A stretch of DNA of 64,000 bases. Origin: an uncultured Terracidiphilus sp. GTDB taxonomy: Bacteria; Acidobacteriota; Terriglobia; Terriglobales; Acidobacteriaceae. Position 1 is the first letter of the stretch; each line of letters starts with the position of its first letter. The DNA lies in assembly GCA_964383595.1 (NCBI GenBank), contig CAYLHL010000001.1:42676-106675 (forward strand). Reading direction: 5' to 3'. Of the stretch, positions 6,826 to 29,103 are shown one piece after another. Below the pieces are notes generated by a model that was given only the letters and a program-made list of their open reading frames with translations, was not told where the DNA came from and made no database searches. Made by a program: the position numbers and the translations under genes.

Positions 6826-8844
6826 TCAGTCGCCGGAGCCAAAACGAAATTGAGCCTTCCAGTCTGTTTCTTCGCCCAATGTCAAACACGCCTCAAAACG
6901 CTTGCCCTGTTTAGAAATGAAGCCTTTGAGCAGGCCGGTTTTGCCCTTCGTGCAGAGTGCCTCAATTTGTTTCGGGGTGAGGGTCTTCTTGGCGATGGTT
7001 TCGTTGATTCTGAATTTGCAGCCCTCGCGGTAGCGGCTGCAACCGTAGAAGTTCTGACCATTGGGCCTTTTGACGACGCCTTGCTTGCATTTCGGGCACA
7101 CGAGCGATCCGGACGGCGGGGCATCCCCTGTTTTCGCCGGCGCTGACCCATTCGACGCCACAGCAGGTTGCGGCGCGATGTGCAACTGCGCCAATTCTTT
7201 TTTGAGCTGGCCGTCAATGCCGGAAACCACATTGATGTACTGGGCTTTGCCTTCGGCAATATCGTCGAGCTGCTGCTCAAGGGAGCGCGTGTAGTCGTAC
7301 TCTAGAAAGGCAAAGTGACCTTTGAGCGCGTCGATGAGCAAGATGCCGAGATCTGTGGCCCTCAATATCTTCTTTGAATCGTCGATGTAGTTGCGCGTAA
7401 TGATGTTCTTGAGAATGGCTGGGTAGGTTGAAGGCCGTCCGATTCCTTCGTGCTCCAGCTTCTTAATCAGACTTGCCTGGGTGTAGCCGTTCGGCGGGCG
7501 CGTCTGCTTGTTCAACACACGGGCGCTGTCGGCGTGGACCTGGGTGCCCCGTGCGAGGGAAGGGACGCGACCATTCTCCTCCGATTGCCTTTCCGGGTCC
7601 TCCGTGTCGTTCGCCTCGGGTTCTTCGGCGGCGTCCTTGGCTGTTAGAGTGCGCCAGCCCGGCTTGATGAGCGTTCGGCCCGTTGCTTTGAAGACGAATG
7701 GCCGCGATCCATCCTGGGCCCGGAGTGTGAGGGTGTTCACGCTGTATTCGGCATCCGCGAGTTGCGAGGCTACAGCTCGGGTCCAAATGAGGTCGTAGAG
7801 GCTCTTCTGGTCGTTGTCTGCGCCGGCATGACGCTGCTCCAGGTGAGTGGGGCGGATTGCCTCGTGCGCCTCCTGGGCGCTCTCTTTCGACTTCCAGGTG
7901 CGCGGTTTCGGCGGCAAGGGCAGGTTGTTGCTGGCCGCGTAAGCCCGAATCTCGGCCAGCGCATCTGCGGAAAAGTTTTGACTGTCGGTGCGGTGGTAGG
8001 TAATCAACCCCTCTTCGAATAGCCGCTGGGCAAGCTGTGCGGTCTGCTCCGGCTTGTATCCGAGCGTTACGCTAGCTGCCTGAAGCAGCGTTGCCGTTGT
8101 GAAGGGCGGCGGCGGGGCCTTGGTCGCCGGTTTCGTCGCCGCGGCCGTGACGGCAAAGATTCTGCATTTCGCTGCTTCTTCCGCCAGCGAAGCATCCAGA
8201 ATGTATTCCTCGCCCTCCTTGAGGAAAGGGGCTGTATCCCACTGGGCGCGCCATTTTCCGTTGTCGAAGATGGCCTCGGCACCAAAATGCTTTGTTTCCT
8301 TGAATGCGTCTATTTCACGTTGCCGATCGACGACAAGGCGGAGAGCAACACTTTGGACGCGCCCGGCACTCAGCCGGGCAATGCCCGTTTGCTGCGAGAG
8401 AGCAGGCGACACCTGGTAGCCGACGAGGCGATCCGCGCCTCGCCTGGCCTCTTGTGCGTGAATGAGGTTCGTATTGAGCTGTCGCGGAGCTTTAAGGGCG
8501 GAACGGACCACGCTCTCGGTGATTGCGTCGAAGGTAACGCGAACGTACCGGCGAGGCTTTAATACCTGCTGCAAGTGCCACGCAATGGCTTCTCCCTCGC
8601 GGTCGGGATCTGTGGCGAGATACACCTGTTCGGAGCGTGCGACGCGCTGCCGCAACTGGGAAACAACAGCCTTGCTGCGTTCGAGAATCTGGTATTGGAG
8701 CCGGTAGGTTTCCGGCTCAATACCGAATTCGCTTACAGGGAGATCCCGAATGTGTCCAACGCTTGCGGCAACATCCCAGCCACTGCCCAAAATTGCTTTG
8801 ATCTTCTTGATCTTATTCGGGCTCTCCACGATCATCAGGTTCAT
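6826..8844 (-). CDS. topA: Type IA DNA topoisomerase (element-borne) with Zn ribbon and C-terminal repeat
   Basis: IVESPNK, ATDPDREGEAIAWH, SAGRVQS, GLITYHRTDS, AQEAHEAIRPT, GIGRPST, CPKC..GCS.Y. Confidence 0.92.
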   Translation of the reverse strand: MNLMIVESPNKIKKIKAILGSGWDVAASVGHIRDLPVSEFGIEPETYRLQYQILERSKAVVSQLRQRVARSEQVYLATDPDREGEAIAWHLQQVLKPRRYVRVTFDAITESVVRSALKAPRQLNTNLIHAQEARRGADRLVGYQVSPALSQQTGIARLSAGRVQSVALRLVVDRQREIDAFKETKHFGAEAIFDNGKWRAQWDTAPFLKEGEEYILDASLAEEAAKCRIFAVTAAATKPATKAPPPPFTTATLLQAASVTLGYKPEQTAQLAQRLFEEGLITYHRTDSQNFSADALAEIRAYAASNNLPLPPKPRTWKSKESAQEAHEAIRPTHLEQRHAGADNDQKSLYDLIWTRAVASQLADAEYSVNTLTLRAQDGSRPFVFKATGRTLIKPGWRTLTAKDAAEEPEANDTEDPERQSEENGRVPSLARGTQVHADSARVLNKQTRPPNGYTQASLIKKLEHEGIGRPSTYPAILKNIITRNYIDDSKKILRATDLGILLIDALKGHFAFLEYDYTRSLEQQLDDIAEGKAQYINVVSGIDGQLKKELAQLHIAPQPAVASNGSAPAKTGDAPPSGSLVCPKCKQGVVKRPNGQNFYGCSRYREGCKFRINETIAKKTLTPKQIEALCTKGKTGLLKGFISKQGKRFEACLTLGEETDWKAQFRFGSGD

Positions 8845-10596: not shown

Positions 10597-13500
10597 ATGA
10601 GCGGAGCGTGGCGTAACGTAGCGATGTTTGTCGTTGTTGTGATGCTGGCTAGCGTAGCTGTGTTTGGCCAGATTTCCTACCCCGCAGCCAATGACATCAA
10701 TGCGATTGCGGGCACTGGCACCATGGGCTACAACGGCACGGGTGGCGCAGCGACGACCACGGATCTATATGAACCCCTCTCCGCTGTATTTGATGCTTCG
10801 GGCAATGTGTGGATCGACGACGGCGCCTTATGTCTTGTACTCGAAGTGTCGGCCTCCACAGGAGACATAAACAGCATTTTAGGCACAGTGCCTTCGGGAG
10901 GCTACTACTACGACTGCGTTCCAACCTATGGGGTTACCTATGATCCGATGGGTGCAGCCGTCGATGCGTCGGGAAATATGTATTTCATCGATGGTGGCAC
11001 CTATATTCGCAAACGGGCAACTTCTGGGAGCTTGAGTGTCGTAGCCGGCATTGGAACGGCTGGGCATACCGGCGACGGTGGGGCAGCGACTAGCGCGGAG
11101 ATCGAGGCCACTAAATTAGCTATCGACTCTTCCGGAAATCTCTTCTTTGTGCAAGATCAGTACACGAGTACGCGAGGCGGGGACGTGTGCTCTTACAACA
11201 CTATTCGTGAAGTAGCGACCTCTGGACTCATTTCGACCGTTGCAGGTAGTGGGACCTGTGGATACACAGGGGATGGCGGGGCGGCGACTAGCGCGGAGAT
11301 TGAGGCAGGCGGTTTGGCTGTTGATTCTTCAGACAACGTCTACATCACAAACTTGGTGGGCTGTGCACTTCGTAAGGTGACGGCTTCAAACCATTACATT
11401 TCAACGATTGCAGGAAACGGGACCTGCGGATATTTAGGGGATGGCGGCGCGGCTGTGAGTGCGGAACTGAAGAGCCCGACCGGGGTCGCAGTGGATTCGA
11501 GCGGTAACGTCTATGTCGCGGACTACGGCAATTACCGCATCCGAATGATTTCGGCGAGTACACAGGACATCTCGACCATTGCGGGTGACGGAACGTTTGG
11601 GTGTTCAGGGAATGGCGGCGCCGCTACCAGCGCAGAGTTGGGATATCTTGACACTTTGGCGATTGATGGCTCCGGACACCTGATTCATACAGACACAGAA
11701 TGCGCTGATGTGCGCGCAGTGACCCTTGTCAAGCCTACTCCTTCAATCTCTTTGTCCTGCTCGCCGAATCCGATTACTTACGGGGGCGAGACCACAGACT
11801 GCACAGTCGATGTCGGGAATGGTGCTACTGGCACGACAACCTGGACGATCAACGGTGGAGCGTGGACGACACAGACATTGAGTGGCGGCACCGCTTCGGC
11901 AGGGGGCTTCAACGGGTATGCGGCCGGCTCGTACACAATCGGCGTTACCTACAACGGCGACAGCAACAACAATACCGCGAGTACATCGACCACGCTTACG
12001 ATCAGCATGGCAACACCAAGCGTTTCCGATACGTGCTCTCCGAATCCGATTACCTACGGGGGCAGCAATTCGATCTGCACTGGTTATGCGAGTGACAGCG
12101 GTACGGTAACCGGGACACTGTCGTTCACGATCAACGGTTCGCCGTGGGCGACGGAAACTCTCTCTTCTGGTTCGGCCACAGCGCCTCAGTTTAGCTCGAC
12201 CTACGGGATCGGCACATACACTGTTGGGGTAACCTACAGCGGCGATAGCAATAACAATGCGGCTAGCAGTTCGACGACGCTAACGATTACCAAGGCCGCT
12301 CAAACGATCACTTTCCCGGCCCCGACAAGCCCAGTAATCTATGGGGTATCGGCGATCTCTCTGAGCGCAACGGCCAGCTCAGGGCTGGCGGTGACCTTCA
12401 GCGTCTCCTCCGGACCTTGCACCGTTTCTGGCAGCACGCTGACGGTCACCGGGGCGGGCACTTGCGTAGTGGCCGCAAATCAGGCAGGTAACGCCGACTA
12501 CTCAGCGGCTGCTCAGGTGACACAGAGTGTCACTGTGAACGCTGCTGTGCTGACGGTGACTGCGAAAAGCGCCTCGCGGGTCTACGGGGTTGCGAATCCA
12601 GCGTTCAGTTATACGGTATCGGGGTATGTAAATGGTGACACTTCGAGCGTCGTTGGTGGCTCGGCTGCGGAGACGACGAGTGCAACGAGCACCTCTGCTC
12701 CTGGCTCCTATTCGATCACCTTTTCGTCCGAGGCGCTGACAGCAGCCAATTACACCTTCAGTTACGTGAATGGGACACTGACCGTGACCCAAGCGTCTCA
12801 AACCATCACCTTCAATGCTCCGGCGAGTCCTATCACCTACGGCGTGTCCCCGATCTCCCTGAGTGCGACGGCCAGTTCCGGCCTGGCGGTGACCTTCAGC
12901 GTCTCCTCCGGACCTTGCACCGTTTCTGGCAGCACGCTGACGGTGACCGGCGCGGGCACCTGCGTGGTGACCGCGAATCAGGCAGGCAACACCGATTACT
13001 TGGCGGCGCCTCAAGTGACGCAAAGCGTGATGGTGAATCAGGCTGCGCTGACGGTGACGGCGAACAGCGCCTCTCGGGTCTACGGCGCGGCAAACCCGAC
13101 ATTCAATTACACAATTACGGGCTACGTGAATGGCGACACATCGAGCGTCGTTGGCGGCTCGGCTACGGAGACGACGAGTGCAACGAGCACCTCAGCTCCT
13201 GGCTCCTACTCGATTACCTTCTCATCCGAAGCGCTGACAGCAACCAATTACACGTTCAGCTATGTAAATGGGACGCTGACGGTGAGCCAGGTGTCGCAGA
13301 CGATCACCTTCAATGCGCCAGCGAGTCCTGTGACCTACGGCGTGTCGCCGATCTCTTTAAGCGCGACGGCCAGCTCTGGGCTGGCGGTGACCTTCAGCGT
13401 CTCCTCCGGCCCCTGTTCGACCTCCGGTGCCACGTTGACGGTGACCGGGGCGGGCACCTGTGTAGTGGCTGCGAATCAGGCGGGCAACGCCGACTACACG

Positions 13501-16500
13501 GCGGCGGCAGCGGTCTCTCATAGCATCGTTGTCAACCCCGCAGTCCTGACGGTGACCGCCAATAATGCGTCGCGCTCTTACGGTGCGGCGAATCCGACAT
13601 TTACCCAGAGCTATTCGGGATTCGTGAACGGTGACACATCGAGTGTGTTGAATGGCGCTCCCAGCTTAATCACAACGGCTACGAGTACCTCCGCACCTGG
13701 CTCCTACTCGATCATGGCTGCGGTTGGAACGCTCACGGCGAGCAACTACACCTTCAGTTTTGTCAACGGAACCCTGACCGTGACAGCGGCCACACAGACA
13801 ATCAGCTTCACGGCTCCCGCAAGCCCGGTGACCTATGGTGTTTCGCCGATCTCTTTGAATGCGACGGCCAGCTCTGGGCTGCCGGTGGCCTTCAGCGTTT
13901 CATCCGGCCCTTGCACGGTCTCGGGCAGCACGTTGACGGTGACTGGAGCGGGTACGTGCGTTGTGGCCGCGAATCAGGGGGGTAACAGTGATTATTCGGC
14001 TGCGGCCCAGGTCACGCAAAGCGTGACGGTCAACCAGGCCGCGCTAACAGTCACGGCGAACAATGCCTCACGGGCCTATGGCGCCACAAATCCGACATTC
14101 AATTACACGATTACGGGCTATGTGAATGGCGACACATCGAGTGTCGTTGGCGGTTCGGCTGCGGAGACGACCAGTGCAACGAGCACTTCTGCCCCAGGAT
14201 CTTACTCGATCACCTTCTCGTCCGAAGCGCTGACAGCAACCAACTACAACTTCAGCTATGTGAGCGGAACGCTGACCGTGATCCAAGCGTCTCAGGCGAT
14301 CACCTTCAATGCTCCGGCGAGTCCTGTGACATACGGAGTGTCGCCGATCTCTTTGAGTGCGACGACCAGTTCCGGCCTGGCGGTAATCTTCAGCGTGTCC
14401 GCCGGCCCTTGCACGGTCTCCGGCAGCACGCTGACGGTATCCGGCTCAGGTACCTGCGTGGTGGCCGCAAATCAGCCGGGCAACAGTGATTATTCGGCTG
14501 CGGCCCAGGTGACGCAAAGCGTGACGGTGAATCAGGCTGCGCTGACGGTCACGGCGACCAACGCCGCGCGGGCCTATGGCGCAGCGAATCCAACATTCAG
14601 TTATACGGTTAGCGGTTATGTGAACGGCGACACATCGAGCGTTGTTGGCGGTTCAGCTGCGGAGACAACAAGTGCAACGAGCAGTTCTGCTCCTGGCTCC
14701 TACTCGATCACCTTCTCTTCCGAGGCATTGACAGCGGCCAATTACACCTTCAGCTACGTCAATGGGACGCTGACCGTGACCCAAGCGTCTCAGACAATCA
14801 GCTTTGCGGCTCCCGCAAGCCCGGTGACCTACGGGGTTTCACCAATCTCTTTGAGCGCAACGGCCAGCTCCGGGCTTGCGGTGACATTCGGCGTCTTGTC
14901 GGGTCCCTGCGCAGTTTCGGGCAGCACATTGACGGTGACTGGAGCAGGCACCTGTGTGGTGGCCGCAAATCAGGCGGGCAACACAGACTACTCGGCTGCG
15001 GCAATGGTCTCTCACAGCATCGTCGTTACTGCCGCGGTGCTCACGGTGACGGCAAACAACGCTTCGCGGGCTTATGGCGCGGCAAATCCGACATTTACCC
15101 CGAGCTATTCGGGGTTCGTGAACGGCGACACATCGAGCGTCCTGAGTGGCGCTCCCAGCTTAACCACAACGGCCACGAGTTCCTCCGCGCCTGGCAGCTA
15201 CACGATCACCTCTGCGGCTGGAACCCTGGCGGCGAGCAACTACACCTTCAGTTTCGTCAACGGAACACTGACGGTCAATGCAGCCGTGCAGACGATCAGC
15301 TTCACGGCTCCAACGAGCCCAGTAACCTACGGAGTGTTGCCTATCACCCTGAGTGCGACGGCCAGCTCCGGGCTGGCTGTGACCTTCAACGTTTCCTCCG
15401 GACCCTGCTCGGTCTCGGGAAGCACGTTGACTGTGACCGGCGCGGGTGGTTGTGTTGTAGCCGCAAATCAGCCGGGCAACAGTGATTATTCGGCTGCGGC
15501 CCAGGTGACGCAAAGCGTGACGGTGAATCAGGCCGCACTGACGGTTTCGGCGAACAGCTCCTCGCGGGCCTATGGCGCAGCGAATCCGGCGTTCGGTTAC
15601 ACGGTCACTGGCTATGTGAACGGTGACACGTCGAGCGTGGTTGACGGCTCGGCTGGGGAGACAACAAGTGCAACAACCTCGTCAGCTCCTGGGTCCTATG
15701 CGATCACCTTTTCTTCCGAGGCGCTCACTGCGACCAACTACACCTTCAGCTATGTGAGTGGAACGCTGACGGTGACGCAAGCATCTCAGACGATCACCTT
15801 CGCTGCTCCAGCAAGCCCGGTGACGTATGGGGTGTCGCCGATCTCGCTCTCTGCCTCGGCCAGTTCTGGGCTGGCGGTGACTTTCAGTGTGTCGTCTGGA
15901 TCGTGCTCGGTCTCCGGCGCTACGCTCACGGTGACCGGGGCAGGCACCTGTGTGGTGGCAGCAAATCAGGCAGGCAATGCAGACTACTCGACGGCGGCAA
16001 CAGCTTCTCACAGCATCGTCGTCAATGCTGCGGTCTTAACGGTGACGGCCAATAACGCCTCACGGGTCTACGGCACCGCAAATCCGACGTTCGCCGCGAG
16101 CTTCTTGGGGTTCGTCAACGGCGACACGTGGAGTGTCCTGAGCGGCGCTCCCAGCTTGACTACAACGGCCACGCCGACATCCGCACCCGGCAGCTACACG
16201 ATCACCTCTGCGGCTGGAACACTGGCAGCGAGCAACTACACCTTCAGTTTCGCCAACGGGACCCTGACGGTGACTGTGGCCACTCAAACAATCACATTCG
16301 CCGCCCCGGCAAGCCCAGTCACCTATGGCGTTTCGCCGATCTCATTGGGCGCGACGGCCAGTTCCGGCCTGGCGGTCACCTTCAGCGTTTCCTCTGGCCC
16401 TTGCTCGGTCTCCGGTAACACGATGACGGTGGCGGGGGCAGGCACCTGTGTAGTGGCTGCAAATCAGCCCGGCAATGCCGACTACACCGCGGCGGCAGCG

Positions 16501-16773
16501 GTCCTGCAGAGCTTGGTCATTAACAAAGAGTCCGTGATTGTCAACAGCGCGTCTTCGCTGTCTCCCTCCATTTATGGCGACAACGTCGCGTTGACTTTCA
16601 CATTAATAGGCGGCGGGGTTACTCCAACAGGCACGCTAACCATCAGCGATGGAGCAAATCCGCTTGCCACGATCTCGCTCGATGCGGGTATCGCAACCTA
16701 CAACACATCTGCACTGATCGCAGGAAAGCACACTCTAACCGCGGTCTACAGCGGAGACAACAACTATCAGTGA
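10597..16773 (+). CDS. Giant secreted adhesin: NHL-repeat beta-propeller, Ig-like (Big_3-type) domains, Ig/MBG tandem stalk
   Basis: Signal peptide; repeated TIAG.GT.GY.GDGGAATSA; MBG-type LTVTANNASRxYGAANPTF; alternative GTG start at 10570. Confidence 0.88.
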   Translation: MSGAWRNVAMFVVVVMLASVAVFGQISYPAANDINAIAGTGTMGYNGTGGAATTTDLYEPLSAVFDASGNVWIDDGALCLVLEVSASTGDINSILGTVPSGGYYYDCVPTYGVTYDPMGAAVDASGNMYFIDGGTYIRKRATSGSLSVVAGIGTAGHTGDGGAATSAEIEATKLAIDSSGNLFFVQDQYTSTRGGDVCSYNTIREVATSGLISTVAGSGTCGYTGDGGAATSAEIEAGGLAVDSSDNVYITNLVGCALRKVTASNHYISTIAGNGTCGYLGDGGAAVSAELKSPTGVAVDSSGNVYVADYGNYRIRMISASTQDISTIAGDGTFGCSGNGGAATSAELGYLDTLAIDGSGHLIHTDTECADVRAVTLVKPTPSISLSCSPNPITYGGETTDCTVDVGNGATGTTTWTINGGAWTTQTLSGGTASAGGFNGYAAGSYTIGVTYNGDSNNNTASTSTTLTISMATPSVSDTCSPNPITYGGSNSICTGYASDSGTVTGTLSFTINGSPWATETLSSGSATAPQFSSTYGIGTYTVGVTYSGDSNNNAASSSTTLTITKAAQTITFPAPTSPVIYGVSAISLSATASSGLAVTFSVSSGPCTVSGSTLTVTGAGTCVVAANQAGNADYSAAAQVTQSVTVNAAVLTVTAKSASRVYGVANPAFSYTVSGYVNGDTSSVVGGSAAETTSATSTSAPGSYSITFSSEALTAANYTFSYVNGTLTVTQASQTITFNAPASPITYGVSPISLSATASSGLAVTFSVSSGPCTVSGSTLTVTGAGTCVVTANQAGNTDYLAAPQVTQSVMVNQAALTVTANSASRVYGAANPTFNYTITGYVNGDTSSVVGGSATETTSATSTSAPGSYSITFSSEALTATNYTFSYVNGTLTVSQVSQTITFNAPASPVTYGVSPISLSATASSGLAVTFSVSSGPCSTSGATLTVTGAGTCVVAANQAGNADYTAAAAVSHSIVVNPAVLTVTANNASRSYGAANPTFTQSYSGFVNGDTSSVLNGAPSLITTATSTSAPGSYSIMAAVGTLTASNYTFSFVNGTLTVTAATQTISFTAPASPVTYGVSPISLNATASSGLPVAFSVSSGPCTVSGSTLTVTGAGTCVVAANQGGNSDYSAAAQVTQSVTVNQAALTVTANNASRAYGATNPTFNYTITGYVNGDTSSVVGGSAAETTSATSTSAPGSYSITFSSEALTATNYNFSYVSGTLTVIQASQAITFNAPASPVTYGVSPISLSATTSSGLAVIFSVSAGPCTVSGSTLTVSGSGTCVVAANQPGNSDYSAAAQVTQSVTVNQAALTVTATNAARAYGAANPTFSYTVSGYVNGDTSSVVGGSAAETTSATSSSAPGSYSITFSSEALTAANYTFSYVNGTLTVTQASQTISFAAPASPVTYGVSPISLSATASSGLAVTFGVLSGPCAVSGSTLTVTGAGTCVVAANQAGNTDYSAAAMVSHSIVVTAAVLTVTANNASRAYGAANPTFTPSYSGFVNGDTSSVLSGAPSLTTTATSSSAPGSYTITSAAGTLAASNYTFSFVNGTLTVNAAVQTISFTAPTSPVTYGVLPITLSATASSGLAVTFNVSSGPCSVSGSTLTVTGAGGCVVAANQPGNSDYSAAAQVTQSVTVNQAALTVSANSSSRAYGAANPAFGYTVTGYVNGDTSSVVDGSAGETTSATTSSAPGSYAITFSSEALTATNYTFSYVSGTLTVTQASQTITFAAPASPVTYGVSPISLSASASSGLAVTFSVSSGSCSVSGATLTVTGAGTCVVAANQAGNADYSTAATASHSIVVNAAVLTVTANNASRVYGTANPTFAASFLGFVNGDTWSVLSGAPSLTTTATPTSAPGSYTITSAAGTLAASNYTFSFANGTLTVTVATQTITFAAPASPVTYGVSPISLGATASSGLAVTFSVSSGPCSVSGNTMTVAGAGTCVVAANQPGNADYTAAAAVLQSLVINKESVIVNSASSLSPSIYGDNVALTFTLIGGGVTPTGTLTISDGANPLATISLDAGIATYNTSALIAGKHTLTAVYSGDNNYQ
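12301..16520 (+). repeat. 498-bp (166-aa) tandem coding repeat, about 8.5 units
   Basis: Q(T/A)I(T/S)F module starts at 12301, 12799 ... 16285, exactly 498 bp apart. Confidence 0.92.
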
Positions 16774-16863
16774 GCTCACCCACGGCAACTGCCGGGGGCG
16801 CTGTATTGACCCGGCTGCCATTCCAACAAACGCAACTCAACCGAAAGAGGACGACAGCCGACC

Positions 16864-18336
16864 ATGAAACCCAGTCAGAGAATTGCGAGTCTTGCACTTC
16901 TGTTGGCCGGTGGCCCTGCGATGCTTTTCGCGCAGTCAACCGGCACGATCACACAAACCGTCAACCATAGAAATACAATCGGTGTTCTTTCTGCGACGCC
17001 CAACGGCACCATCACCGCTGGCAATCCTATCGCTTTCACCTACATTCTGAACACTGCCGGTACTCCGGCCCCTACGACAGAGACGGTGCAGTTCTACGAC
17101 GGCACCACGGCATTGGGCACTCCCCAAACTATTGGGCTGATCCCGGCAGCCAATTTGCTGCCCTACTCGCAAGTCAACACAGGGCAAGGATGGACTACTT
17201 CCGGGACCGCCCCGACAGTAGCCTCCCTGACCGCCAATGGCCCGGACGGCAGTACCAATACAGCCACCGCCTTGACATTTGTGAATGCGACCTCGACGGT
17301 ACTCTATGCAGTTCCGGGAACGACCAACTACGCCAATCAGCAAGTGACTTTCTCGATCTGGGCGCAGTCCGCAACTCCGACGACACTCAATCTCATCGTT
17401 CAGGACAGCCCCTTTGTGGCTGCGAATAAATCCGCGCCTTGCTCAGTTACCTCTACGTGGCAACGATGCACGCTGACCTACACCTTTCCGGCGACTGCCG
17501 GCACTGGTTTTGCCGTTTCGCTGACCTCATCGAATTTTGGCGTGCCTATCAATCTCTGGGGTGCGCAGTTTGAACAAGCCGGCCAGGCAGGACCGTACGT
17601 TTCCACGATTGGAACCGCGAGGCCGACCGGCGCACAAGCCGGGACCGTCGCGTTCTCCTGGAGCCAATTTCAGACCGGGGTTCATACGGTCACGGTGCAG
17701 TATCCGGGAGATGCGAACTTCGTGGGATCGACCTCGAATGCTGTAGTCCTCACGGCTCAGCAGGAGATCCCGAAGATTGTTTTGACAGATTCACCGGCGG
17801 GTACGAGCGTCTATGGCCAAGCTGTGACGCTGACTGCGCAGTTGTCGGATCAGGATAACGATGACAACTGGATTCCGACCGGAACGGTAACCTTCTACGA
17901 CGGGACCACGGTGATCGGCTCTGGAACGCTGAACGCGTCGGGACAAGCCTCCATCACGCTCGTTGGCCCGACCTCGCTGGTTGTGGGTTCCCACTCGCTG
18001 ACGGTCCAGTATAGCGGCGATGAAGATTTCAGCGCCCTCACCTCCGGACCCATTGTCCACGTAGTAACGAAGGCCAGTTCGAGCAGCGTGGTGACAACTA
18101 CGGTTACCAGTTCGCTCAACCCGTCCGTCTATGGCGATTCCGTCACGCTGAGCATCAATGTTTCGTCCTCTGTCGGCATCCAGCCCACCGGCTCGGTGAC
18201 GGTCGTCGATGGAAGCACCACGCTCGGCACATTGACGCTCAACGCCTCCGGCAACGCAACCATCACTATCCCAACCTTTACGGCAGGGACGCACAACATC
18301 GTTGTCACGTATTCGGGCGACAGCAACTACAACTAA
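16864..18336 (+). CDS. Secreted Ig-like repeat protein with inserted CBM/head-spike-like domain
   Basis: Signal peptide ending MLFA-Q; three PT(G)TV.FYDG..H...V.Y.GD Ig domains; RBS AGAGG. Confidence 0.85.
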   Translation: MKPSQRIASLALLLAGGPAMLFAQSTGTITQTVNHRNTIGVLSATPNGTITAGNPIAFTYILNTAGTPAPTTETVQFYDGTTALGTPQTIGLIPAANLLPYSQVNTGQGWTTSGTAPTVASLTANGPDGSTNTATALTFVNATSTVLYAVPGTTNYANQQVTFSIWAQSATPTTLNLIVQDSPFVAANKSAPCSVTSTWQRCTLTYTFPATAGTGFAVSLTSSNFGVPINLWGAQFEQAGQAGPYVSTIGTARPTGAQAGTVAFSWSQFQTGVHTVTVQYPGDANFVGSTSNAVVLTAQQEIPKIVLTDSPAGTSVYGQAVTLTAQLSDQDNDDNWIPTGTVTFYDGTTVIGSGTLNASGQASITLVGPTSLVVGSHSLTVQYSGDEDFSALTSGPIVHVVTKASSSSVVTTTVTSSLNPSVYGDSVTLSINVSSSVGIQPTGSVTVVDGSTTLGTLTLNASGNATITIPTFTAGTHNIVVTYSGDSNYN

Positions 18337-18345
18337 CCAACAAAG

Positions 18346-18377
18346 GGCGCTGCCGGACTCTCCTGTCTGGCAGCGCC
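18346..18377 (+). terminator. Intra-operon stem-loop (attenuator or mRNA stabiliser)
   Basis: GGCGCTGCCGGAC-tctcct-GTCTGGCAGCGCC, 13-bp stem, no U tract. Confidence 0.55.
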
Positions 18378-18425
18378 AACCGTGTGATCGAGAGTGGATA
18401 GGATTCGAAGACGATTGGGAGTTCG

Positions 18426-19328
18426 ATGATGAGACGCATTCTTATTGATGTTGGCCTGTTGTTCGCGGCGTTGTCTGTCATGCCGCTGTCGCTCGATGCA
18501 CAAAAGAGCGTCTCTTACCGGCAGGTTGTCGAACAGGCGAGCACCATAACTCTGGTTTCGTCGTCCGTCAATCCGTCGCCAAACAATTCGACGGTCGCTT
18601 TCGCAGCTCATGTCACCGGAGTGCTTGCCGGTATACCAACCGGCACCGTAGCATTCAGCGCCACCCAGGAGTCTGGCCAGGTTGCCACAGCCACGCTTCC
18701 CTTGGACGCTTCGGGTAACGCGACCTGGACAATCTCTCTTCAATCCGGTCAGTACGAAATCACAGCACTGTATAGCGGTGACACCGATTATCTCTCGTCC
18801 GTATCTACGACTCTTTCTCAGATCGTCGAAGGGCCTCCCGATTTCACAATCAGTCTTCCATCGACAATGACCGTCGTTCAGGGGGCATCCGGCACGGCGA
18901 CTGTCTCGGTCACCTCTCTCAACGGATTTGCAGGCACGATCCAGTTGCAATGCACTGGAGCACCAGACGAGAGTTCGTGCAACTTCACACACGACTCGAT
19001 CACGATCCCCGCGTCCGCAGCAACCTCAGCATCCAGCGTCAATACAACCACTTTGACTATGACCACGGCTGGCACGACGGTCACGACGCTTGGGGTTCTG
19101 GGTTTGTTGTTCGGGTGGGGTTCCTGCTCGCGTAAGAGGCTGCGTCATCGCTTCGTGATCTGGATTGGACTTGCGGTTCTCTTGATGGGAATAGCAGGGT
19201 GCGCGGGTCCCAATCGCTACGTGCAATCCAACGGAACGCCGCCGGGGTACTACTCTCTGACAGTTGTGGCAACGTCAGGATCAATCACTCATTCAAGCAC
19301 GATGACCTTGCATGTAGTTGCGAAATAG
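18426..19328 (+). CDS. Ig-like domain protein with C-terminal hydrophobic segments and internal lipobox
   Basis: Signal peptide; complete Ig domain; hydrophobic-RKRLRHR-hydrophobic-IAGC followed by GTPPGYYSLTV. Confidence 0.82.
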   Translation: MMRRILIDVGLLFAALSVMPLSLDAQKSVSYRQVVEQASTITLVSSSVNPSPNNSTVAFAAHVTGVLAGIPTGTVAFSATQESGQVATATLPLDASGNATWTISLQSGQYEITALYSGDTDYLSSVSTTLSQIVEGPPDFTISLPSTMTVVQGASGTATVSVTSLNGFAGTIQLQCTGAPDESSCNFTHDSITIPASAATSASSVNTTTLTMTTAGTTVTTLGVLGLLFGWGSCSRKRLRHRFVIWIGLAVLLMGIAGCAGPNRYVQSNGTPPGYYSLTVVATSGSITHSSTMTLHVVAK

Positions 19329-19357
19329 GCGCATCGCCAAAAGGAAGGGGCGGCATT

Positions 19358-19933
19358 ATGAAAATGAGGCTGCATCTGGCAACGATCATCCTGGGTGTCT
19401 CGTTTGCCGGCATTTCGCTCTTCGCTCAAGCGCGGCATGAGGTCAAATACGACTGGGCTCCGGACCAACTGGCAGCTACGTTTATGTACACAGTCGATGA
19501 CTACTCTCTGCAAGTGACTCCGACGAATCTTGAAAGAACTCGCCTCGGCGGTGGCAGCGTCGAATACGCATCGCGCCATTTCTATCCCTGGGAGCTCGTC
19601 GGATCTGCCCAATACTCCAGCGGTCAACCTCTGGGGCAGAAGCTCATCTCTGCGGGCGGAGGCGCGGGATACTGTCGAAGTTTCAAGCACTGGACTCCCT
19701 ATGCCCGCGTTCTCGGCGGCATGGCTCGAACCAGCTCCAACGATCAGATGTATCTCTATACGGCCCCTAAATTGGGCCTTGCGTTCAACACAAGTGTTGG
19801 CGCAGATTACCAGCTCACGCCCCGATGGGGAATCCGCGGAGTGCAATTGCAAAATGAGTATTTGCCGTTTGGATCGCGCGGCTCGGTGTATTGGTCCATC
19901 GGTACGGGAATCACCTACCACTTTCGTCCTTGA
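19358..19933 (+). CDS. Small outer-membrane beta-barrel protein
   Basis: Signal peptide; alternating strands WTPYARVLGG, VGADYQL, terminal GTGITYHF. Confidence 0.75.
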   Translation: MKMRLHLATIILGVSFAGISLFAQARHEVKYDWAPDQLAATFMYTVDDYSLQVTPTNLERTRLGGGSVEYASRHFYPWELVGSAQYSSGQPLGQKLISAGGGAGYCRSFKHWTPYARVLGGMARTSSNDQMYLYTAPKLGLAFNTSVGADYQLTPRWGIRGVQLQNEYLPFGSRGSVYWSIGTGITYHFRP

Positions 19934-19942
19934 GGAGAGGTC

Positions 19943-21586
19943 ATGCGAAGGAAAGGAATCGCTCAGTTCTTTGTGGCCTGGATGTTGCTCGCCGCATGTG
20001 TCGAGTGTGTGTATGCGCAGGCGCAGGACCCACTCATCGTCCGGATGGCCGCGAACGAGAATGCGATGCTGGCCCGCATCGGCAAACAAGCTCCTCTGGT
20101 CGAAACATATTTGCAGGTGGTGGCCAGGAATGGCGAAAGTCCGGTTTCGGATCGGTACTATCTGCACCGGATCGACCTTGGCAGTGCGATCCGGGAGACC
20201 ATGTACGATCAACCAGAACGGCAACGCTCAAAGCTGTCAAATGCGTGGAAGTTCGCGGGTCTGTCGGTACGCCGCGCTCCCATATCGTTCAACTCCTCGG
20301 GATTCGTCGAAATGCTTTCTCCCGACATCCACGGGTTTGACCCCGGCAAATTCAAGTTTGAGTTCCTTCACAACGAATTCATCGGCAATGTGAAGGCCGC
20401 CGTCTACGATGTTTTCCCCGCGAAGGCTGGTTATTTTCGCGGCCGGTTCTGGATTGACGAGCACGGTAACCTGGTCCGTTTTACAGGAGTTTTCGCCGGT
20501 AACGGTTCCGGGTCTCATCCCCTATACCTGCATTTCGATTCATGGCGATTGAACGTCAAGCCGGGGGTCTGGCTACCGGCAGCCATCTACGTCGAGGAAC
20601 CTGTGCCGGAAGGAATTGTGCATGGCCAGATACGCATCTGGGGCTACGGCCTTGACGCCCGGCTTCACGATCCGCTGTCTTCGGTCACAGTCTCCGTGGA
20701 CGATGCCGTGGATCGCAGCGGCGACGGAACAGACATGGACCCGTTGGCGTCGCTGCAGGCGTGGAAGGATCTCGCCGCAAGCAACATCCTCGACAAGTTG
20801 GAACGCGCCGGTATTCTCGCCCCGCACAGCAGCTTCGATAGCGTTCTCGATCAGATTGTGGTCAACCTGAGCGTTCCGAACGATCTGACATTCGCAGAAC
20901 CCGTCCATTGCCGCGTCATGCTAACCACGCCCATCGAAGCGACAACCGTGGGCAACACAATCCTCATCAGCAAGGGGCTCATCGAAACACTTCCCAACGA
21001 GGAAGCGATCGCTTCGGTGGTCGCATTCGAGCTCGCCCACGTAATTCAAAGCAACACTGTGGACACACGCTACTCCTTTGCGGACAGAACGATGTTCCCA
21101 GACCGGAAAGTCAGTAGAGACCTCAACCTCGCGCATTCAGGCAAGGAAGATGAGAAGGCGGCAGAAGTCGCCGTAAACCTTATTAAGAAGAGCATGTACG
21201 GGGACAAGCTGGGAGGCATCGGCTTGTACTACCAACAAATGGCCCTTGGCATTGGAAAGCTAAATGGGCTGTATAGGCCGGAAACGGGAGATTCGCTGAT
21301 CTCACCGACCGGGAAGCCGTGGCTGCTCGCGCTGCTCGCTGAGAAAAGTCCACGGCTCGAACCGGGAAACCCGCGTCAGCTCGCAGCTTTGCCGCTCGGC
21401 TCAAACCTGGTTGTCGATCCGTGGACCGGGGAAGTGCGGCTGAGCGATGCGCCCCGAGTGATGCCTCAGACGACCAGTGAAAAGCGGCCGTTTGAAGTTG
21501 TGCCCGTGTACTTTCGGCTGCGGGTTGCTCCGGAGGTCGCACTCGGCACTGGAAACGCTGACACGGTGACGGTTGCCGTCCGGTGA
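19943..21586 (+). CDS. Exported M48-peptidase-like protein with degenerate zinc motif
   Basis: ILISKGLIETLPNEEAIASVVAFELAH matches M48 context, but HExxH reads FELAH. Confidence 0.72.
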   Translation: MRRKGIAQFFVAWMLLAACVECVYAQAQDPLIVRMAANENAMLARIGKQAPLVETYLQVVARNGESPVSDRYYLHRIDLGSAIRETMYDQPERQRSKLSNAWKFAGLSVRRAPISFNSSGFVEMLSPDIHGFDPGKFKFEFLHNEFIGNVKAAVYDVFPAKAGYFRGRFWIDEHGNLVRFTGVFAGNGSGSHPLYLHFDSWRLNVKPGVWLPAAIYVEEPVPEGIVHGQIRIWGYGLDARLHDPLSSVTVSVDDAVDRSGDGTDMDPLASLQAWKDLAASNILDKLERAGILAPHSSFDSVLDQIVVNLSVPNDLTFAEPVHCRVMLTTPIEATTVGNTILISKGLIETLPNEEAIASVVAFELAHVIQSNTVDTRYSFADRTMFPDRKVSRDLNLAHSGKEDEKAAEVAVNLIKKSMYGDKLGGIGLYYQQMALGIGKLNGLYRPETGDSLISPTGKPWLLALLAEKSPRLEPGNPRQLAALPLGSNLVVDPWTGEVRLSDAPRVMPQTTSEKRPFEVVPVYFRLRVAPEVALGTGNADTVTVAVR

Positions 21587-22987: not shown

Positions 22988-23440
22988 CTAGAACGGCGAA
23001 TCGTCGGTTAGCTCGGTGCCGTTGTCGGCCTCTACCGAAATCGGGGCGGTCCCGTTGTCGCTAGCCGGGTCTGGTGCTGCTTCATTGGGCGAGGAGGCCG
23101 GCCGACGGCTGAGCAGGGTGAAGCTATCGATGACGACCTGGGTAAAGTTGTGCTGCACATTGTCCTTGTCGGTCCACCGCCTGTATGCGAGGTGACCGAC
23201 CACATGGAGGGGATTGCCTTTCTTGACGTACTTTTTGATAACGTCGGCAGGCTTTTCGCCGTACATGACGAGGTTGTGCCAAGCGGTGGTTTCCTTCACT
23301 TCTCCCGTGCTTTTGTCCACATACTGGTTGTTGGTGGCCAGGGTAAAGCGTGCGACGGGAGTTCCGTTCGTGGTGTACTGGATCTTCGGATCGATTCCGA
23401 CGTTGCCTAGCAATATGGTGAGATTGACTGAACCGGCCAT
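22988..23440 (-). CDS. ssb: Single-stranded DNA-binding protein
   Basis: SVN..ILLGNVG.DP, ARFTLATN, TAWH, acidic DDSPF tail. Confidence 0.93.
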   Translation of the reverse strand: MAGSVNLTILLGNVGIDPKIQYTTNGTPVARFTLATNNQYVDKSTGEVKETTAWHNLVMYGEKPADVIKKYVKKGNPLHVVGHLAYRRWTDKDNVQHNFTQVVIDSFTLLSRRPASSPNEAAPDPASDNGTAPISVEADNGTELTDDSPF

Positions 23441-25371: not shown

Positions 25372-28300
25372 TTGAAGATGAAATACGGCGATTTAATTCA
25401 ATTCGAACCGATTGAGTCCGTGGTACAGCTCCGCAATGCGGATCAGTTGGATGCTGCGAAGCAACTCGTATCCACTTACGTCATCTCGGATGAGATGGCG
25501 GAGAAGTTGACATCCCTTGTCATTCCGGACATTCAGTTCGACACGCCTTCGGATAATAAGGGGCTGATGGTCGTGGGCAACTATGGCACAGGCAAGTCCC
25601 ACCTAATGTCGGTTCTTTCGGCGATCGCGGAAGATGCAGCCACGTTACCCTTAATTCGTTGCGCTCCAGTGGCCAAGGCGGCGCAACGGATCGCTGGCAA
25701 GTTTAAGGTGATCCGTACCGAGATCGGCGCAGTGACGATGTCCCTCCGGGACATCCTTACTGCGGAAATAGAAGAGCATCTCTCCAAGCTGGGCGTTAGC
25801 TTTACCTTTCCTTCTGCTGCTGCCATTACAAACAACAAGCGTGCCTTTGAGGACATGATGGCGGTATTCCAGCAGAAGTACCCCGACCAAGGTTTGCTTG
25901 TCGTTGTCGACGAACTGCTCGACTATTTGCGAAGCCGGAAAGATCAGGAACTGGTTCTCGATCTGAACTTTCTCCGCGAACTGGGAGAGGTTTGCAAAGA
26001 CCTGCGATTCCGATTCGTCGCCGGCCTCCAGGAGGCCATCTTTGACAGCCTGCGATTCTCGTTCGTCGCTGAGAGCCTACGTCGTGTAAAGGATCGTTTC
26101 GAGCAGATCCTGATCGCCCGGAGTGACGTGAAGTTTGTAGTCGCGGAGCGCCTCTTGCGAAAGACGCCCACGCAGGAAGCTCAGATTCGGGAGTACCTTC
26201 TGCCGTTCACGAGGTTTTACGGCAACATGAACGAGCGCCTGGACGAATTCGTGCGCCTCTTTCCGGTGCATCCGGATTATATCGATACCTTCGATAAGGT
26301 CACAGCGGTAGAGAAGCGAGAAGTGCTAAAGAGCCTTTCAATCGCGATGCGAAAGAGGCTGAATGATTCATTGCCAATAAATGAGCCAGGTTTGATCGCC
26401 TACGACAATTATTGGAACACTCTCCGCGAAAACCCATCGTTCCGCGCCGTCCCCGACATCCGTGCGGTCATCGATTGCAGCCAACTTCTTGAATCTCGTA
26501 TCGAAGCGGCTTTCCCCATCAAGCCTTTTAAGCCGATGGCACGGCGAATCATTCAAGCCCTTTCGGTAAACCGCCTCACGACCGGCGATATCCATGTTCC
26601 GGTTGGTCCCACCGCGACGGAGCTGCGCGATACTCTTTGCCTCTATCAAGCAGAAGTCGCGGCCATGGGCGGTGACGGGGCCGCAGACCTTCTGACTCAC
26701 GTTGAGAATGTAGTTGGCCAAATCAAGAGTACAGTCAGCGGTCAGTTCCTCTCGCAGAATCAGGAAAATGGCCAAATCTACCTCGACCTGAAGAAGACTG
26801 AGGACTACGACGCGCTAATTGAGAAGCGTGCCGAATCACTGGATTCCACTCAACTGGATCGCTATTACTACGAAGCGCTAAAACGAGTGATGGAATGCAC
26901 GGACCAGACTTATGTCAGCGGGTACCGCATTTGGGAACACGAATTGGAATGGATCGAGCGCAAGGTCGCTCGCCGCGGTTACCTCTTCTTCGGCGCGCCA
27001 AATGAGCGTTCGACGGCGGCGCCGCCTCGCGATTTCTACCTGTACTTCCTTCAACCTTTCGATCCGCCGCGGTACCAGGACGAGAAGAGGAAAGATGACG
27101 TATTCTTTCGGCTCAACCTCACTGTCGGCGATGACGAATTCCGCACAATCCTCCGAAGTTACGCAGCGGCGGTTAATCTCGGATCGACATCCTCGGGGAA
27201 TGCGAAGGACACGTACGAGCGAAAAGGAACGGGATTTCTGAGGGATTTGGTCAAATGGCTACAAGATCACATGACCACGGCCTTCGAAGTCACGTATCAG
27301 GGAAAGGCGAAACCCCTGCTGGGCTGGGCGAAAGGTAAACCGCTCGGTAGTGGCGGCCGAATCAATGTGCGGGATGTTGTGAATACGGTTGCCTCGGCGT
27401 GCTTGGCACCGCATTTTGAAGATATCGCACCGAATTATCCCTCGTTTTCGCTCCTGATCACCACAGCGAACCGTGAGTTGGCAACCCAGGATGCCCTCAA
27501 AGCCATTGCCGGCGGTCCGCGGACGAAGGTCGGCACAGCCGTGCTCGAAGCATTGGAGTTGCTTGACGGTGAGCGGTTGGATGCGGCGAAGTCAAAGTTC
27601 GCCTGCCAAGTTGTCGATGCGTTGAAGAAGAAGGGGCACGGTCAAGTTGTAAACCGGAGTGAGCTGGTTCATGAAGTGCACGGGGTCGAGTATTTCGCAC
27701 CTGAAACCTGTCGCCTAGAACCAGAGTGGCTCGTCGTCTTGCTTGCTGCGCTCGTGCATTCCGGTGATCTTGTTCTCGCCGTTCCCGGCAGGAAACTCGA
27801 CGCAACTAATATCGCCCAGTTGACAGCAACGCCTCTCGACGAACTGATCAACTTCAAGCACATCGAGCGGCCGAAAGACTGGAACCTGCCTGCGCTGAAG
27901 GCATTGTTTGAGCTATTGAGCCAGCCTCCTGGACTTGCGCAGGCGCTCACGCAGGGTGGTGAACAGGCCGGCGGTGCGGTAAAGACTCTGGCAGGTGAAT
28001 CCAAGAAGCTTACTGAGCGGATAGTTCATGCGCAGCAAGTGCTGCAAGGCGGGTTGAAACTCTGGGCACGCAATCTGCTTTCTCCTGAAGATTCCGATGC
28101 ACTGCGTGTGCGGATGGATGTTACCAAGCAGTTTCTTGAATCACTTCAGGCATATACCAGTGCCGGACAACTCAAGAACTTCCGCGATGAGCCGCAGGCT
28201 ATTTCCGCCAAACGTGATGGCTTAGAAGTACTGAAACAAGTTGAATCGTTCCAGATGATCGCCGCTGAATTCGGACCACTCGCATCCTATCTCGCTGCTG

Positions 28301-29103
28301 CCGAAATGGCGCTGCCCAGCGATCATGCGTGGATCAAGAAGATTCAGGCCGTTCGGCAGGAGCTGCTGTCGGATATGTTGGACGCCGGGAAGCGGCAATC
28401 GCATTCATTTCATCAAGAAGGTCTTCAAAAGCTGTCCAGCTTGAAGAAGGACTATTCAGAGTTGTATGTGGCCGCTCACGGCCGCGCACGACTGGGTGCG
28501 AAAGACGATAAGTTGAAGGCGCGACTGTCAACGGATGCTCGGCTGGGACAGTTGCAGAGACTTTCGACCATTGAACTAATGCCGAGGCAGCAGCTCAGCG
28601 ACTACCAGAACCGTCTAGCCAGTCTCCGAACTTGCTTCGCGCTAACGCAGCCGGATCTTGATGCTTCCCCTGTTTGCCCGCACTGCAATTTCCGGTTGGT
28701 TTCCGAACCTGATTCTGTTTTCGCGAGTCAGGCAATCAGGAAGTTGGAGGAGGAGTTGGACCGGCTGTACGACGGTTGGACAAAGACTCTTCTGAACAAC
28801 CTGGAAGATCCCACGACTCAGCAGAATCTTGGATTGCTGAAATCGGCGCCCAGGAAGATCGTTGACGCGTTCTTGACAGCGTCTGTCCTTCCAGATGATG
28901 TGAGTCATGACTTTGTCGCTGCTCTTCAGGAGGCCCTATCGGGCCTATCGAAGGTTATCGTAACTGCCGATGCGCTTCGTGCTGCGCTACTTGCCAACGG
29001 TTCGCCATCTACAGTGCCGGAATTGAAGAAGCGCTTCGACGATTACCTCGTCGAGATTGTCAAAGGCAAGGACGCATCAAAGGTCAGGATTGTTTTGGAG
29101 TAG
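25372..29103 (+). CDS. brxC: BREX-3 ATPase BrxC/PglY (DUF6079-type)
   Basis: Walker A GNYGTGKS, Walker [12 protein letters not shown]-terminal CPHC; 1243 aa. Confidence 0.85.

Follow-up and report, generated by a model that had tools for sequence, protein, structure and literature searches.

Three adjacent genes for Ig-domain proteins

The analyzed stretch of 64,000 nucleotides (hereafter, the window) belongs to contig CAYLHL010000001.1 of an uncultured Terracidiphilus sp. from the family Acidobacteriaceae and carries on its + strand three successive genes, designated here g1, g2 and g3, the products of which contain immunoglobulin-like (Ig) domains of the Big_3_5 family. These proteins are predicted, with a probability of about 0.7 as judged from their sequences, to join head-to-tail by donor-strand complementation in trans, because g1 and g2 end without the last strand of the Ig fold, and g2 and g3 begin with a strand matching the missing one.

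The first gene, g1 (10597-16773, +), encodes a protein of 2067 amino acids (aa), the putative acceptor-only tip of the assembly. Its open reading frame (ORF) opens at GTG 10570, the ATG at 10597 being ORF residue 10. As revealed by translation and a Pfam scan, the protein consists of a likely signal peptide, an NHL beta-propeller head, three Big_3_5 stretches and eight MBG_2-containing repeats, with matches to MBG_2 (1.5e-146, eight stretches), Big_3_5, NHL and TEN_NHL; its N-terminus has no peptide resembling a G strand. The eight Ig-plus-MBG_2 units, located at 11800-16500, are almost identical to one another, and the lengths of g1 orthologues (909-2676 aa in loci L013-L028) indicate that the repeat number shifts fast.

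The second gene, g2 (16864-18336, +), encodes the 490-aa middle subunit, for which translation, Pfam and NCBIfam point to both a donor and an acceptor. It is composed of three Big_3_5 domains, the first of which is split by an inserted domain (17146-17619, +; residues 95-252) recognized as NCBIfam NF048003, GTA_spike_fiber, at 8e-18. This insert resembles the head-spike fibre domain of gene transfer agents and phages and, judging from this similarity, is a possible glycan binder. Three tandem copies of the g2-type module, i.e., an Ig domain with the insert, are present in the protein P0127.

The third gene, g3 (18426-19328, +), encodes a protein of 300 aa, which by the same three approaches appears to be a donor-only, membrane-anchored base and possesses one complete Big_3_5 domain (residues 45-134, model positions 2-87 of 88). 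Its C-terminal part (18999-19316, +; residues 192-297) matches NCBIfam NF058595, invert_tail, annotated as a ‘lipo-invert putative C-terminal anchoring domain’ (3e-15; score of 56.6 bits, with the cut-off at 37). The anchor is made up, in order, of a transmembrane (TM) helix, the basic loop RKRLRHR, a second hydrophobic helix running to a lipobox-like IAGC (Cys259) and a beta-hairpin tail (residues 274-298), modelled by AlphaFold2 (AF2) with a predicted local distance difference test (pLDDT) score of 86-89. Among 10 g3-like proteins tested, invert_tail scored above the cut-off in four (from L018, L027, L028 and L017) and weakly in four more. Should Lsp cut at Cys259, the hairpin of about 40 residues would become a separate lipopeptide, and this may represent a second case of domain completion across a break in the chain.

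The Pfam scan of the trio returned Big_3_5 (three stretches in g1, three in g2 and one in g3), MBG_2 and NHL only, fimbrial pilin families giving no match. Head, stalk and anchor do not reside in one polypeptide: each of the three ORFs has its own start and a likely signal peptide, recognized from the sequence. The likely signal peptide of g2, MKPSQRIASLALLLAGGPAMLFA (16864-16932, +), has a basic N-terminus, a hydrophobic core and Ala at position -1; the signal stretch is variable among orthologues and the AQS junction is conserved. The signal peptides of g2 and g3 end in LFA and LDA, respectively, each followed by Gln, and neither carries a Cys, i.e., an N-terminal lipobox is absent.

Terminal Ig domains without the last strand

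The last Big_3_5 domain of g1 (16555-16770, +) covers model positions 4-75 of 88 and ends with AVYSGDNNYQ directly before the stop codon at 16771-16773, and that of g2 (18076-18333, +) covers positions 1-76 of 88 and ends with TYSGDSNYN before the stop codon at 18334-18336. Complete domains of the same family extend to model position 87 of 88 (g2 residues 311-401; g3 residues 45-134). The terminal matches, which stop at positions 75-76, therefore lack the last (G) strand. The original prediction, made by reading the DNA alone, had placed both truncated ends at these coordinates, and all of its positions and quoted sequences proved correct.

Such ends are specific to the two genes within their own genome of 3.37 Mb. 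A loose regular expression found 26 tails among the 6552 stop-to-stop ORFs of at least 150 aa, and the only two YSGD-type Ig tails among them are those of the adjacent g1 and g2. Unrelated proteins with a C-terminal Big_3_5 domain retain the G strand, ending, for instance, with YGGDTDFLSSISDPLTQTVA or YAGDTNTQGSTSAGFTQTVNE directly before the stop codon. The truncation is also preserved in homologues. It had been reasoned that homologues carrying the final strand would speak against donor-strand joining; instead, among the matches listed, 113 of 120 g2 homologues terminate 3-8 residues after Y.G[DN], and the seven exceptions comprise two divergent frameshift-like ends, four Ig proteins that are not orthologous and one protein with a degenerated motif in the same place. 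About 115 g2 orthologues share 48-94% identity. In an alignment of 29 orthologues, down to 49% identity, Y483, S484, G485, D486, N488 and Y489 of g2 are invariant, and every g1 orthologue from the other loci ends with Y[SNG]GD.NY. followed by the stop.

The adjacent ends might alternatively be a product of decay or artefact, either a giant gene interrupted by nonsense mutations or one chain made by stop-codon read-through, as g1 and g2 share a frame in the window and are separated by a 90-nt spacer containing TGA stops only. This explanation was rejected as highly improbable: each piece has its own start codon and likely signal peptide, the split is kept down to 48% identity, the frames of g1 and g2 agree in only four of seven loci and differ in the other three (L017, L018 and L026), and those of g2 and g3 differ as well. 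In some metagenome-assembled genomes (MAGs), g1, g2 or the downstream gene g5 (see below) is itself divided into two ORFs (L014 6517-10387, L017 13496-15140, L030 9533-11405 and L042 957-2932); these are frameshifts or assembly errors, and some lineages may be losing the locus by decay.

Putative donor peptides at the mature N-termini

Mature g2 would begin with QSTGTITQTVN at 16933, and mature g3 with QKSVSYRQVVEQA at 18501. The corresponding putative donor peptides are QSTGTITQTVNHRNT of g2 (16933-16977, +), which reads as an orphan Big_3_5 G strand plus linker, and QKSVSYRQVVEQAST of g3 (18501-18545, +), recognized on the basis of a G-strand profile, conservation and the fused homologue P0126 described in the next section. 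The profile, a hidden Markov model (HMM), was derived from 97 twenty-residue segments following YxGD, taken from the same genome outside the locus and from non-orthologous loci, and has the consensus AGSTSAALTQTVNQASTTTT. When it was run on the N-terminal 70 residues of 9005 ORFs from the genome, the N-terminus of g2 ranked first, TGTITQTVN being aligned to SAALTQTVN, and that of g3 ranked 44th. Profile alignment with hhalign placed residues 26-60 of g2 in register with the G strand, linker and A strand of both of its internal domain junctions (P 3e-5 and 7e-5). The distance from the GD of the acceptor to the conserved valine is 14 residues in the virtual joints and 15 in the internal junctions, which locates the cut in the F-G loop.

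The donor residues rank among the few invariant columns of the g2 and g3 alignments. In g2, R36 and T38 are invariant among the 29 orthologues and V33 is nearly so. The alignment of 12 g3-like proteins (20-91% identity) contains 12 invariant columns in all, of which three (V35, Q37 and A38) fall in the donor, where Q33 is also nearly invariant, and three (G258, C259 and G261) in the lipobox. A core pattern, hydrophobic-x-Q-x-V-x-Q, is common to all donors; outside it, g2-type and g3-type donors differ consistently. The resemblance of these N-termini to the missing strand, initially noticed by eye, was thus recovered with the independent G-strand HMM, with hhalign and with fused homologues.

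Fused and single-chain relatives

The strongest new evidence is comparative and comes from proteins in which the parts of the trio are continuous. In P0126, a 931-aa protein from a public assembly, residues 217-663 align to residues 29-489 of g2 (43% identity, 3e-81) and residues 672-931 to residues 32-300 of g3 (39% identity, 8e-39), so that the end of g2 and the start of g3 lie 8 residues apart and are contiguous within one ordinary Ig domain. The N-terminal peptide of g2 aligns in it to LTQSVTQSPT; located after YSGDTNFTSATSNP, this segment is the G strand of the domain before. At its own N-terminus, P0126 has a g3-type donor. A second arrangement was revealed in L082, a locus of the genome G102 from another genus of the family, where a 755-aa protein combines the g2 module with a donor and three additional Ig domains: residues 29-489 of g2 align to its residues 303-754 (38% identity, 5e-72) with the same end point, and the N-terminal peptide of g2 aligns to the internal G strand following YSGDANFQPGTSQP. 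This protein is flanked by a 1051-aa FG-GAP-headed protein ending with AAYQGDSNYH and by a 311-aa protein consisting of a donor plus an anchor.

Longer homologues of g3 extend the comparison to undivided chains. Among the matches listed, 40 of 120 are single chains of approximately 1600-1900 aa with NHL motifs and an anchor tail, and none of the 120 has a truncated C-terminal domain. In P0191 of Granulicella paludicola (1809 aa), residues 130-700 align to residues 24-592 of g1 and residues 1538-1807 to residues 33-297 of g3. Such single-chain acidobacterial adhesins share with the trio the beta-propeller head, the Big_3_5 stalk and the invert_tail anchor and are colinear by BLAST with g1 and g3; the trio differs from them in being cut twice. 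The cuts always lie between the F and G strands, each downstream piece having gained a likely signal peptide, which is followed by the G strand. In view of these fused and single-chain homologues, the trio represents, at the level of sequence comparison, a common one-chain adhesin that has been split. The roles ascribed beforehand to the three proteins (acceptor-only tip, donor-plus-acceptor middle and anchored donor-only terminator) agree with the truncated Pfam matches, the fusions and the single chains bearing both head and anchor.

Conservation and distribution of the locus

The neighbourhood scan, using one genome per species, covered 19 loci with a g2 orthologue, all from Acidobacteriaceae MAGs or genomes. 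In 17 of them g2 is directly followed by a gene for a protein with a donor-like N-terminus and a tail comprising the TM helix, basic loop and lipobox; as for the two loci without a g3-type gene, one contig ends too early and the other locus is fragmentary. Of the 19 loci, 16 have a second gene with an acceptor end no farther than 10 kb away, in the order g1-g2-g3 or g2-g3-g1, and in one further locus it lies at a distance of 17.5 kb. An unconserved gene arrangement had been named as a potential refutation of strand exchange; the triad turned out to be kept in 16-17 of the 19 loci. The acceptor-only proteins (909-2676 aa) have NHL or FG-GAP heads and N-termini that are not donor-like. In other genera the acceptor-only tips possess FG-GAP rather than NHL propellers (L082 4487-7642; L081 8968-11820), and the heads appear to be interchangeable on the same joining system.

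Beyond these loci, the phylum was scanned with the DNA pattern Y.GD.N[YFH].stop. Paired acceptor ends were detected in three of 401 genomes, G000, G102 and G238, all from one family. Single hits were about as frequent as in a reversed-pattern control, one of them (G374) being an unrelated protein. A wider class of such systems across the phylum was rejected, the paired hits being confined to the three genomes. With g2 as the query, the search of 40 relatives gave matches to Ig domains only and no full-length orthologue of g2; this tally includes five unpublished genomes (G034, G035, G036, G038 and G040).

Structure prediction and the proposed assembly

The AF2 monomer of g2, obtained with a 98-row alignment, has a mean pLDDT of 92.6. 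Residues 24-34 form no strand in it, the block 21-30 averaging 65, and the last domain is a six-stranded sandwich with pLDDT of 92-95. In the model of g3 (12 rows, mean pLDDT 77.9) residues 26-37 are likewise unpaired. Self-complementation of g2 in cis was rejected as AF2 leaves residues 24-34 of the monomer unpaired; besides, g1 lacks a donor and g3 lacks an acceptor, so that partners in trans would be needed anyway. A fold search with the g2 model against the PDB gave generic tandem-Ig matches only (an S-layer protein, LILRB and adhesins).

The models also bear on another explanation, in which no complementation in trans takes place, the six-stranded ends being stable as they are and the N-terminal peptides serving as an export, sorting or maturation signal. 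The high confidence with which AF2 models the truncated domain agrees with it. It leaves unexplained why the peptides correspond to the missing strand and, in fused homologues, align to G strands, why the only two truncated ends of the genome are adjacent and lie beside two donor-bearing genes, and why other terminal Big_3_5 domains retain their strand; we consider it unlikely.

According to the preferred reading, i.e., donor-strand complementation in trans, each protein of the trio would be exported separately by Sec. The N-terminal strand of g2 would then insert beside the F strand of the last domain of g1, and that of g3 into the last domain of g2, presumably restoring ordinary Big_3_5 domains nicked in the F-G loop. 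The product would be a tandem-Ig rod with the NHL propeller of g1 at the distal end, g2 as an extension bearing the lectin-like insert, and g3 as the membrane base held by the lipo-invert tail, the polarity of the rod being expected to be that of the single-chain relatives. The original prediction that neither an usher nor a chaperone accompanies these genes holds for the whole genome (96% complete): PF00577 (PapC-like usher) and PF00345 (PapD-like chaperone) gave no matches in it, the E. coli control being positive for both.

Several points weigh against this assembly. The model does not account for how the proteins would cross the outer membrane of a diderm, and no factor resembling a chaperone, which would keep the acceptors open, was found. 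The truncated g2 domain, modelled confidently alone, may be stable without a partner, and the docking of the strands is proposed from sequence and comparative evidence. The HMM scores are individually weak, 8.5 bits for g2 (E 1.5) and 4.0 bits for g3. The covariation of the g2 donor columns with the rest of g2, computed as mutual information with average product correction (MI-APC) on 98 sequences (effective number 63), does not exceed background; the best pair, 27-432, scores 0.238 and takes approximately rank 50 overall. The positions paired with residue 27 in the top pairs, 27-432 and 27-412, fall in the last domain of g2. A complex prediction for two mature g2 chains (residues 24-490, 98-row alignment), which scored 0.29 against a mark of 0.42 in a run without controls, carries no weight in either direction. 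Finally, the system is rare, as follows from the three genomes of a single family mentioned above, and the evidence originates mostly from MAGs.

Number of g2 subunits and the hairpin after g2

Immediately downstream of the g2 stop codon, at 18346-18377 (+), there is a GC-rich hairpin with a 13-bp stem (fold z -2.83), which ranks within the top 2.6% of 2208 folds computed downstream of ORFs in this genome; within the window the only other fold of similar strength lies past g5, where the cluster ends. In 14 of 14 other loci (L013-L018, L020, L022-L024, L026-L028 and L082), the g2 stop is likewise followed by a GC-rich hairpin, 11-16 bp long. Its stem sequences differ by locus and a U-tract is usually absent. 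The element is possibly an attenuator or a 3'-end stabilizer.

Judging from the fused homologues, a chain would contain a minimum of one g2. More than one copy is possible, since g2 carries a donor as well as an acceptor and the donors share the core pattern. Two arrangements can be considered. In the first, g2 adds to itself repeatedly, the donor of each copy entering the acceptor of the previous one, with g1 capping the resulting polymeric shaft and g3 terminating and anchoring it. Within the trio g2 alone is equipped at both ends for such growth, the common donor core leaves no sequence feature that would forbid g2-g2 pairing, and both the donor and the acceptor of g2 are highly conserved, in contrast to the variable acceptors of g1 and donors of g3. 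The strong hairpin found after g2 in the window and in all the other loci, including those with the order g2-g3-g1, could yield an excess of g2 over g3. The fused forms, namely P0126 and the single chains running from NHL head to anchor, nevertheless manage with one copy per module, and the hairpin may be a mere terminator before a g3 promoter. Predicted from sequence features, the shaft is a tentative option to which we give clearly less than even odds.

The second arrangement, held with the same reserve, is a strictly split adhesin of 1:1:1 composition, in which g1 takes the strand of g2 and g2 takes the strand of g3, forming the non-covalent equivalent of the single-chain adhesins. It accords with the order and colinearity of the fused homologues and with the separation of the parts into types. 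In the tree built across the loci, 15 of 16 g2-type acceptor domains comprise one clade (support 99/98), and g1-type and g2-type acceptors form separate lineages, the tree needing 2 changes of label compared with a mean of 10.9 after shuffling; the donors of g2 and g3 types, as noted, are consistently distinct outside the core. The core-facing donor residues are, however, the same in g2 and g3, and equal stoichiometry leaves the conserved hairpin after g2 unexplained.

A further-reaching version of the shaft would make the system a chaperone- and usher-independent fibre of the Acidobacteriaceae, with g2 forming a lectin-bearing shaft, NHL and FG-GAP proteins as interchangeable tips and the lipo-invert protein as the base. 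The hairpin would set the g2:g3 ratio and, with it, the length of the fibre, and a new class of pili would have arisen from an adhesin cut at its F-G loops. Taken as a whole, this picture is a conjecture that we find rather doubtful.

Neighbouring genes

Downstream of g3 lie two genes whose membership in the system is doubtful: g4 (19358-19933, +), encoding a small, likely outer-membrane beta-barrel without a Pfam family, and g5 (19943-21586, +), encoding an M48-like protein with a weak match to Pfam M48 (0.014) and feature-based matches of 0.97 to M48 clusters, in which HExxH is replaced by FELAH (or MELAH). In L013, in L017 and in L082, the variant locus, the triad has both genes as neighbours. 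In L014-L016 g4 is present and g5 gave no match, the contig of L016 ending about 1.1 kb past g4, and both are absent from the 10-kb flanks of the remaining loci. Paralogues of g5 with a neighbouring outer-membrane protein (OMP) gene and without an adhesin occur in G000 (contig C11) and G102 (contig C6), and the sole g5 homologue of G238 is located about 190 kb from g2. The suggestion that the barrel and the M48-like protein are dedicated assembly factors could not be upheld, since most of the distant loci lack both genes and paralogous pairs of g5 and OMP genes exist elsewhere without adhesins; g4 and g5 probably constitute a separate envelope module. They form a recurrent pair, found in the window at 19358-21586, in G000 at C11:21350-23913 and in G102 on C37, C33 and C6.

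The cluster is flanked by genes for a topoisomerase (6826-8844, -), a single-stranded DNA-binding protein (22988-23440, -) and a 1243-aa AAA-type protein with DUF6079 (25372-29103, +), the flanks also including a TonB-type barrel. The flanking genes and the patchy distribution of the triad hint at a mobile or island context.

Relation to known strand-exchange systems and significance

The trio shares with chaperone-usher pili an Ig-like subunit without the C-terminal G strand and, as predicted, the set of an acceptor-only tip, a donor-plus-acceptor middle and a donor-only, cell-proximal terminator. In these pili the groove of the subunit is filled by the N-terminal extension of the next one, a role for which the N-terminal peptides of g2 and g3 are candidates. 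This donor-strand logic is well established for type 1 and P pili with the FimH/PapG tip, FimA/PapA rod and PapH terminator (PMC1868955 and PMC6615685). Unlike single-domain pilins, the proteins of the trio are tandem-Ig Big_3_5 proteins of 300-2067 aa; the putative terminator g3 has its own membrane anchor, unsplit single-chain homologues exist, and PapD and PapC have no match in the genome.

Independent of an outer-membrane usher are TasA of Bacillus, the TLP-1 pond fibrils, the Pam pili of the Candidate Phyla Radiation and the WxL/Elr pilus, all of which employ N-terminal strand donation. The donor of TLP-1 is disordered in the AF2 monomer (PMC11494351), like those of the trio, and in Pam pili a tip with only a truncated Ig domain is combined with an anchored terminator inserting its N-terminus (bioRxiv 10.64898/2026.03.03.709456). 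All these systems are homopolymers of small dedicated pilins, and Pam and Elr have chaperones, whereas the trio consists of large adhesin segments from another domain family in a diderm, with polymerization only predicted. The subunits of type V pili are lipoprotein precursors matured by proteolysis, and the strands that they exchange have another arrangement. Like the predicted assembly of the trio, the type V pili of Bacteroidota (FimA/Mfa1) rely on strand exchange between subunits in the absence of an usher (PMC4789730). They are distinguished from g2 by the absence in the latter of an N-terminal lipobox, the g2 donor being the mature N-terminus itself.

In the full-text literature search, no paper was found joining donor strand with the names of Acidobacteria, none on lipo-invert and none tying Big_3_5 to strand exchange, and strand complementation was tied to fibrillar adhesins in reviews only; donor-strand fibres that need no usher are themselves a field of active research. 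Joining by a borrowed strand has not been described for Big_3_5 adhesins in the literature searched, and the system is probably a split fibrillar adhesin using the joining principle of pili. Of the initial interpretation as a pilus, the strand-joining principle is accordingly retained, and the assignment to a pilus class is probably too strong.

To our knowledge, donor-strand complementation has so far been known from dedicated pilins. If the proposed joining is true, large segments of fibrillar adhesins would be held together by donor strands without the chaperone and usher thought necessary in diderms, and this in a phylum with hardly any studies of its surface structures. The series of one-chain, two-piece and three-piece forms would offer a rare view of the origin of strand exchange, through a cut in the F-G loop and an added signal peptide, and suggests modular swapping of adhesive heads, the NHL and FG-GAP propellers, on a shared stalk with its anchor.

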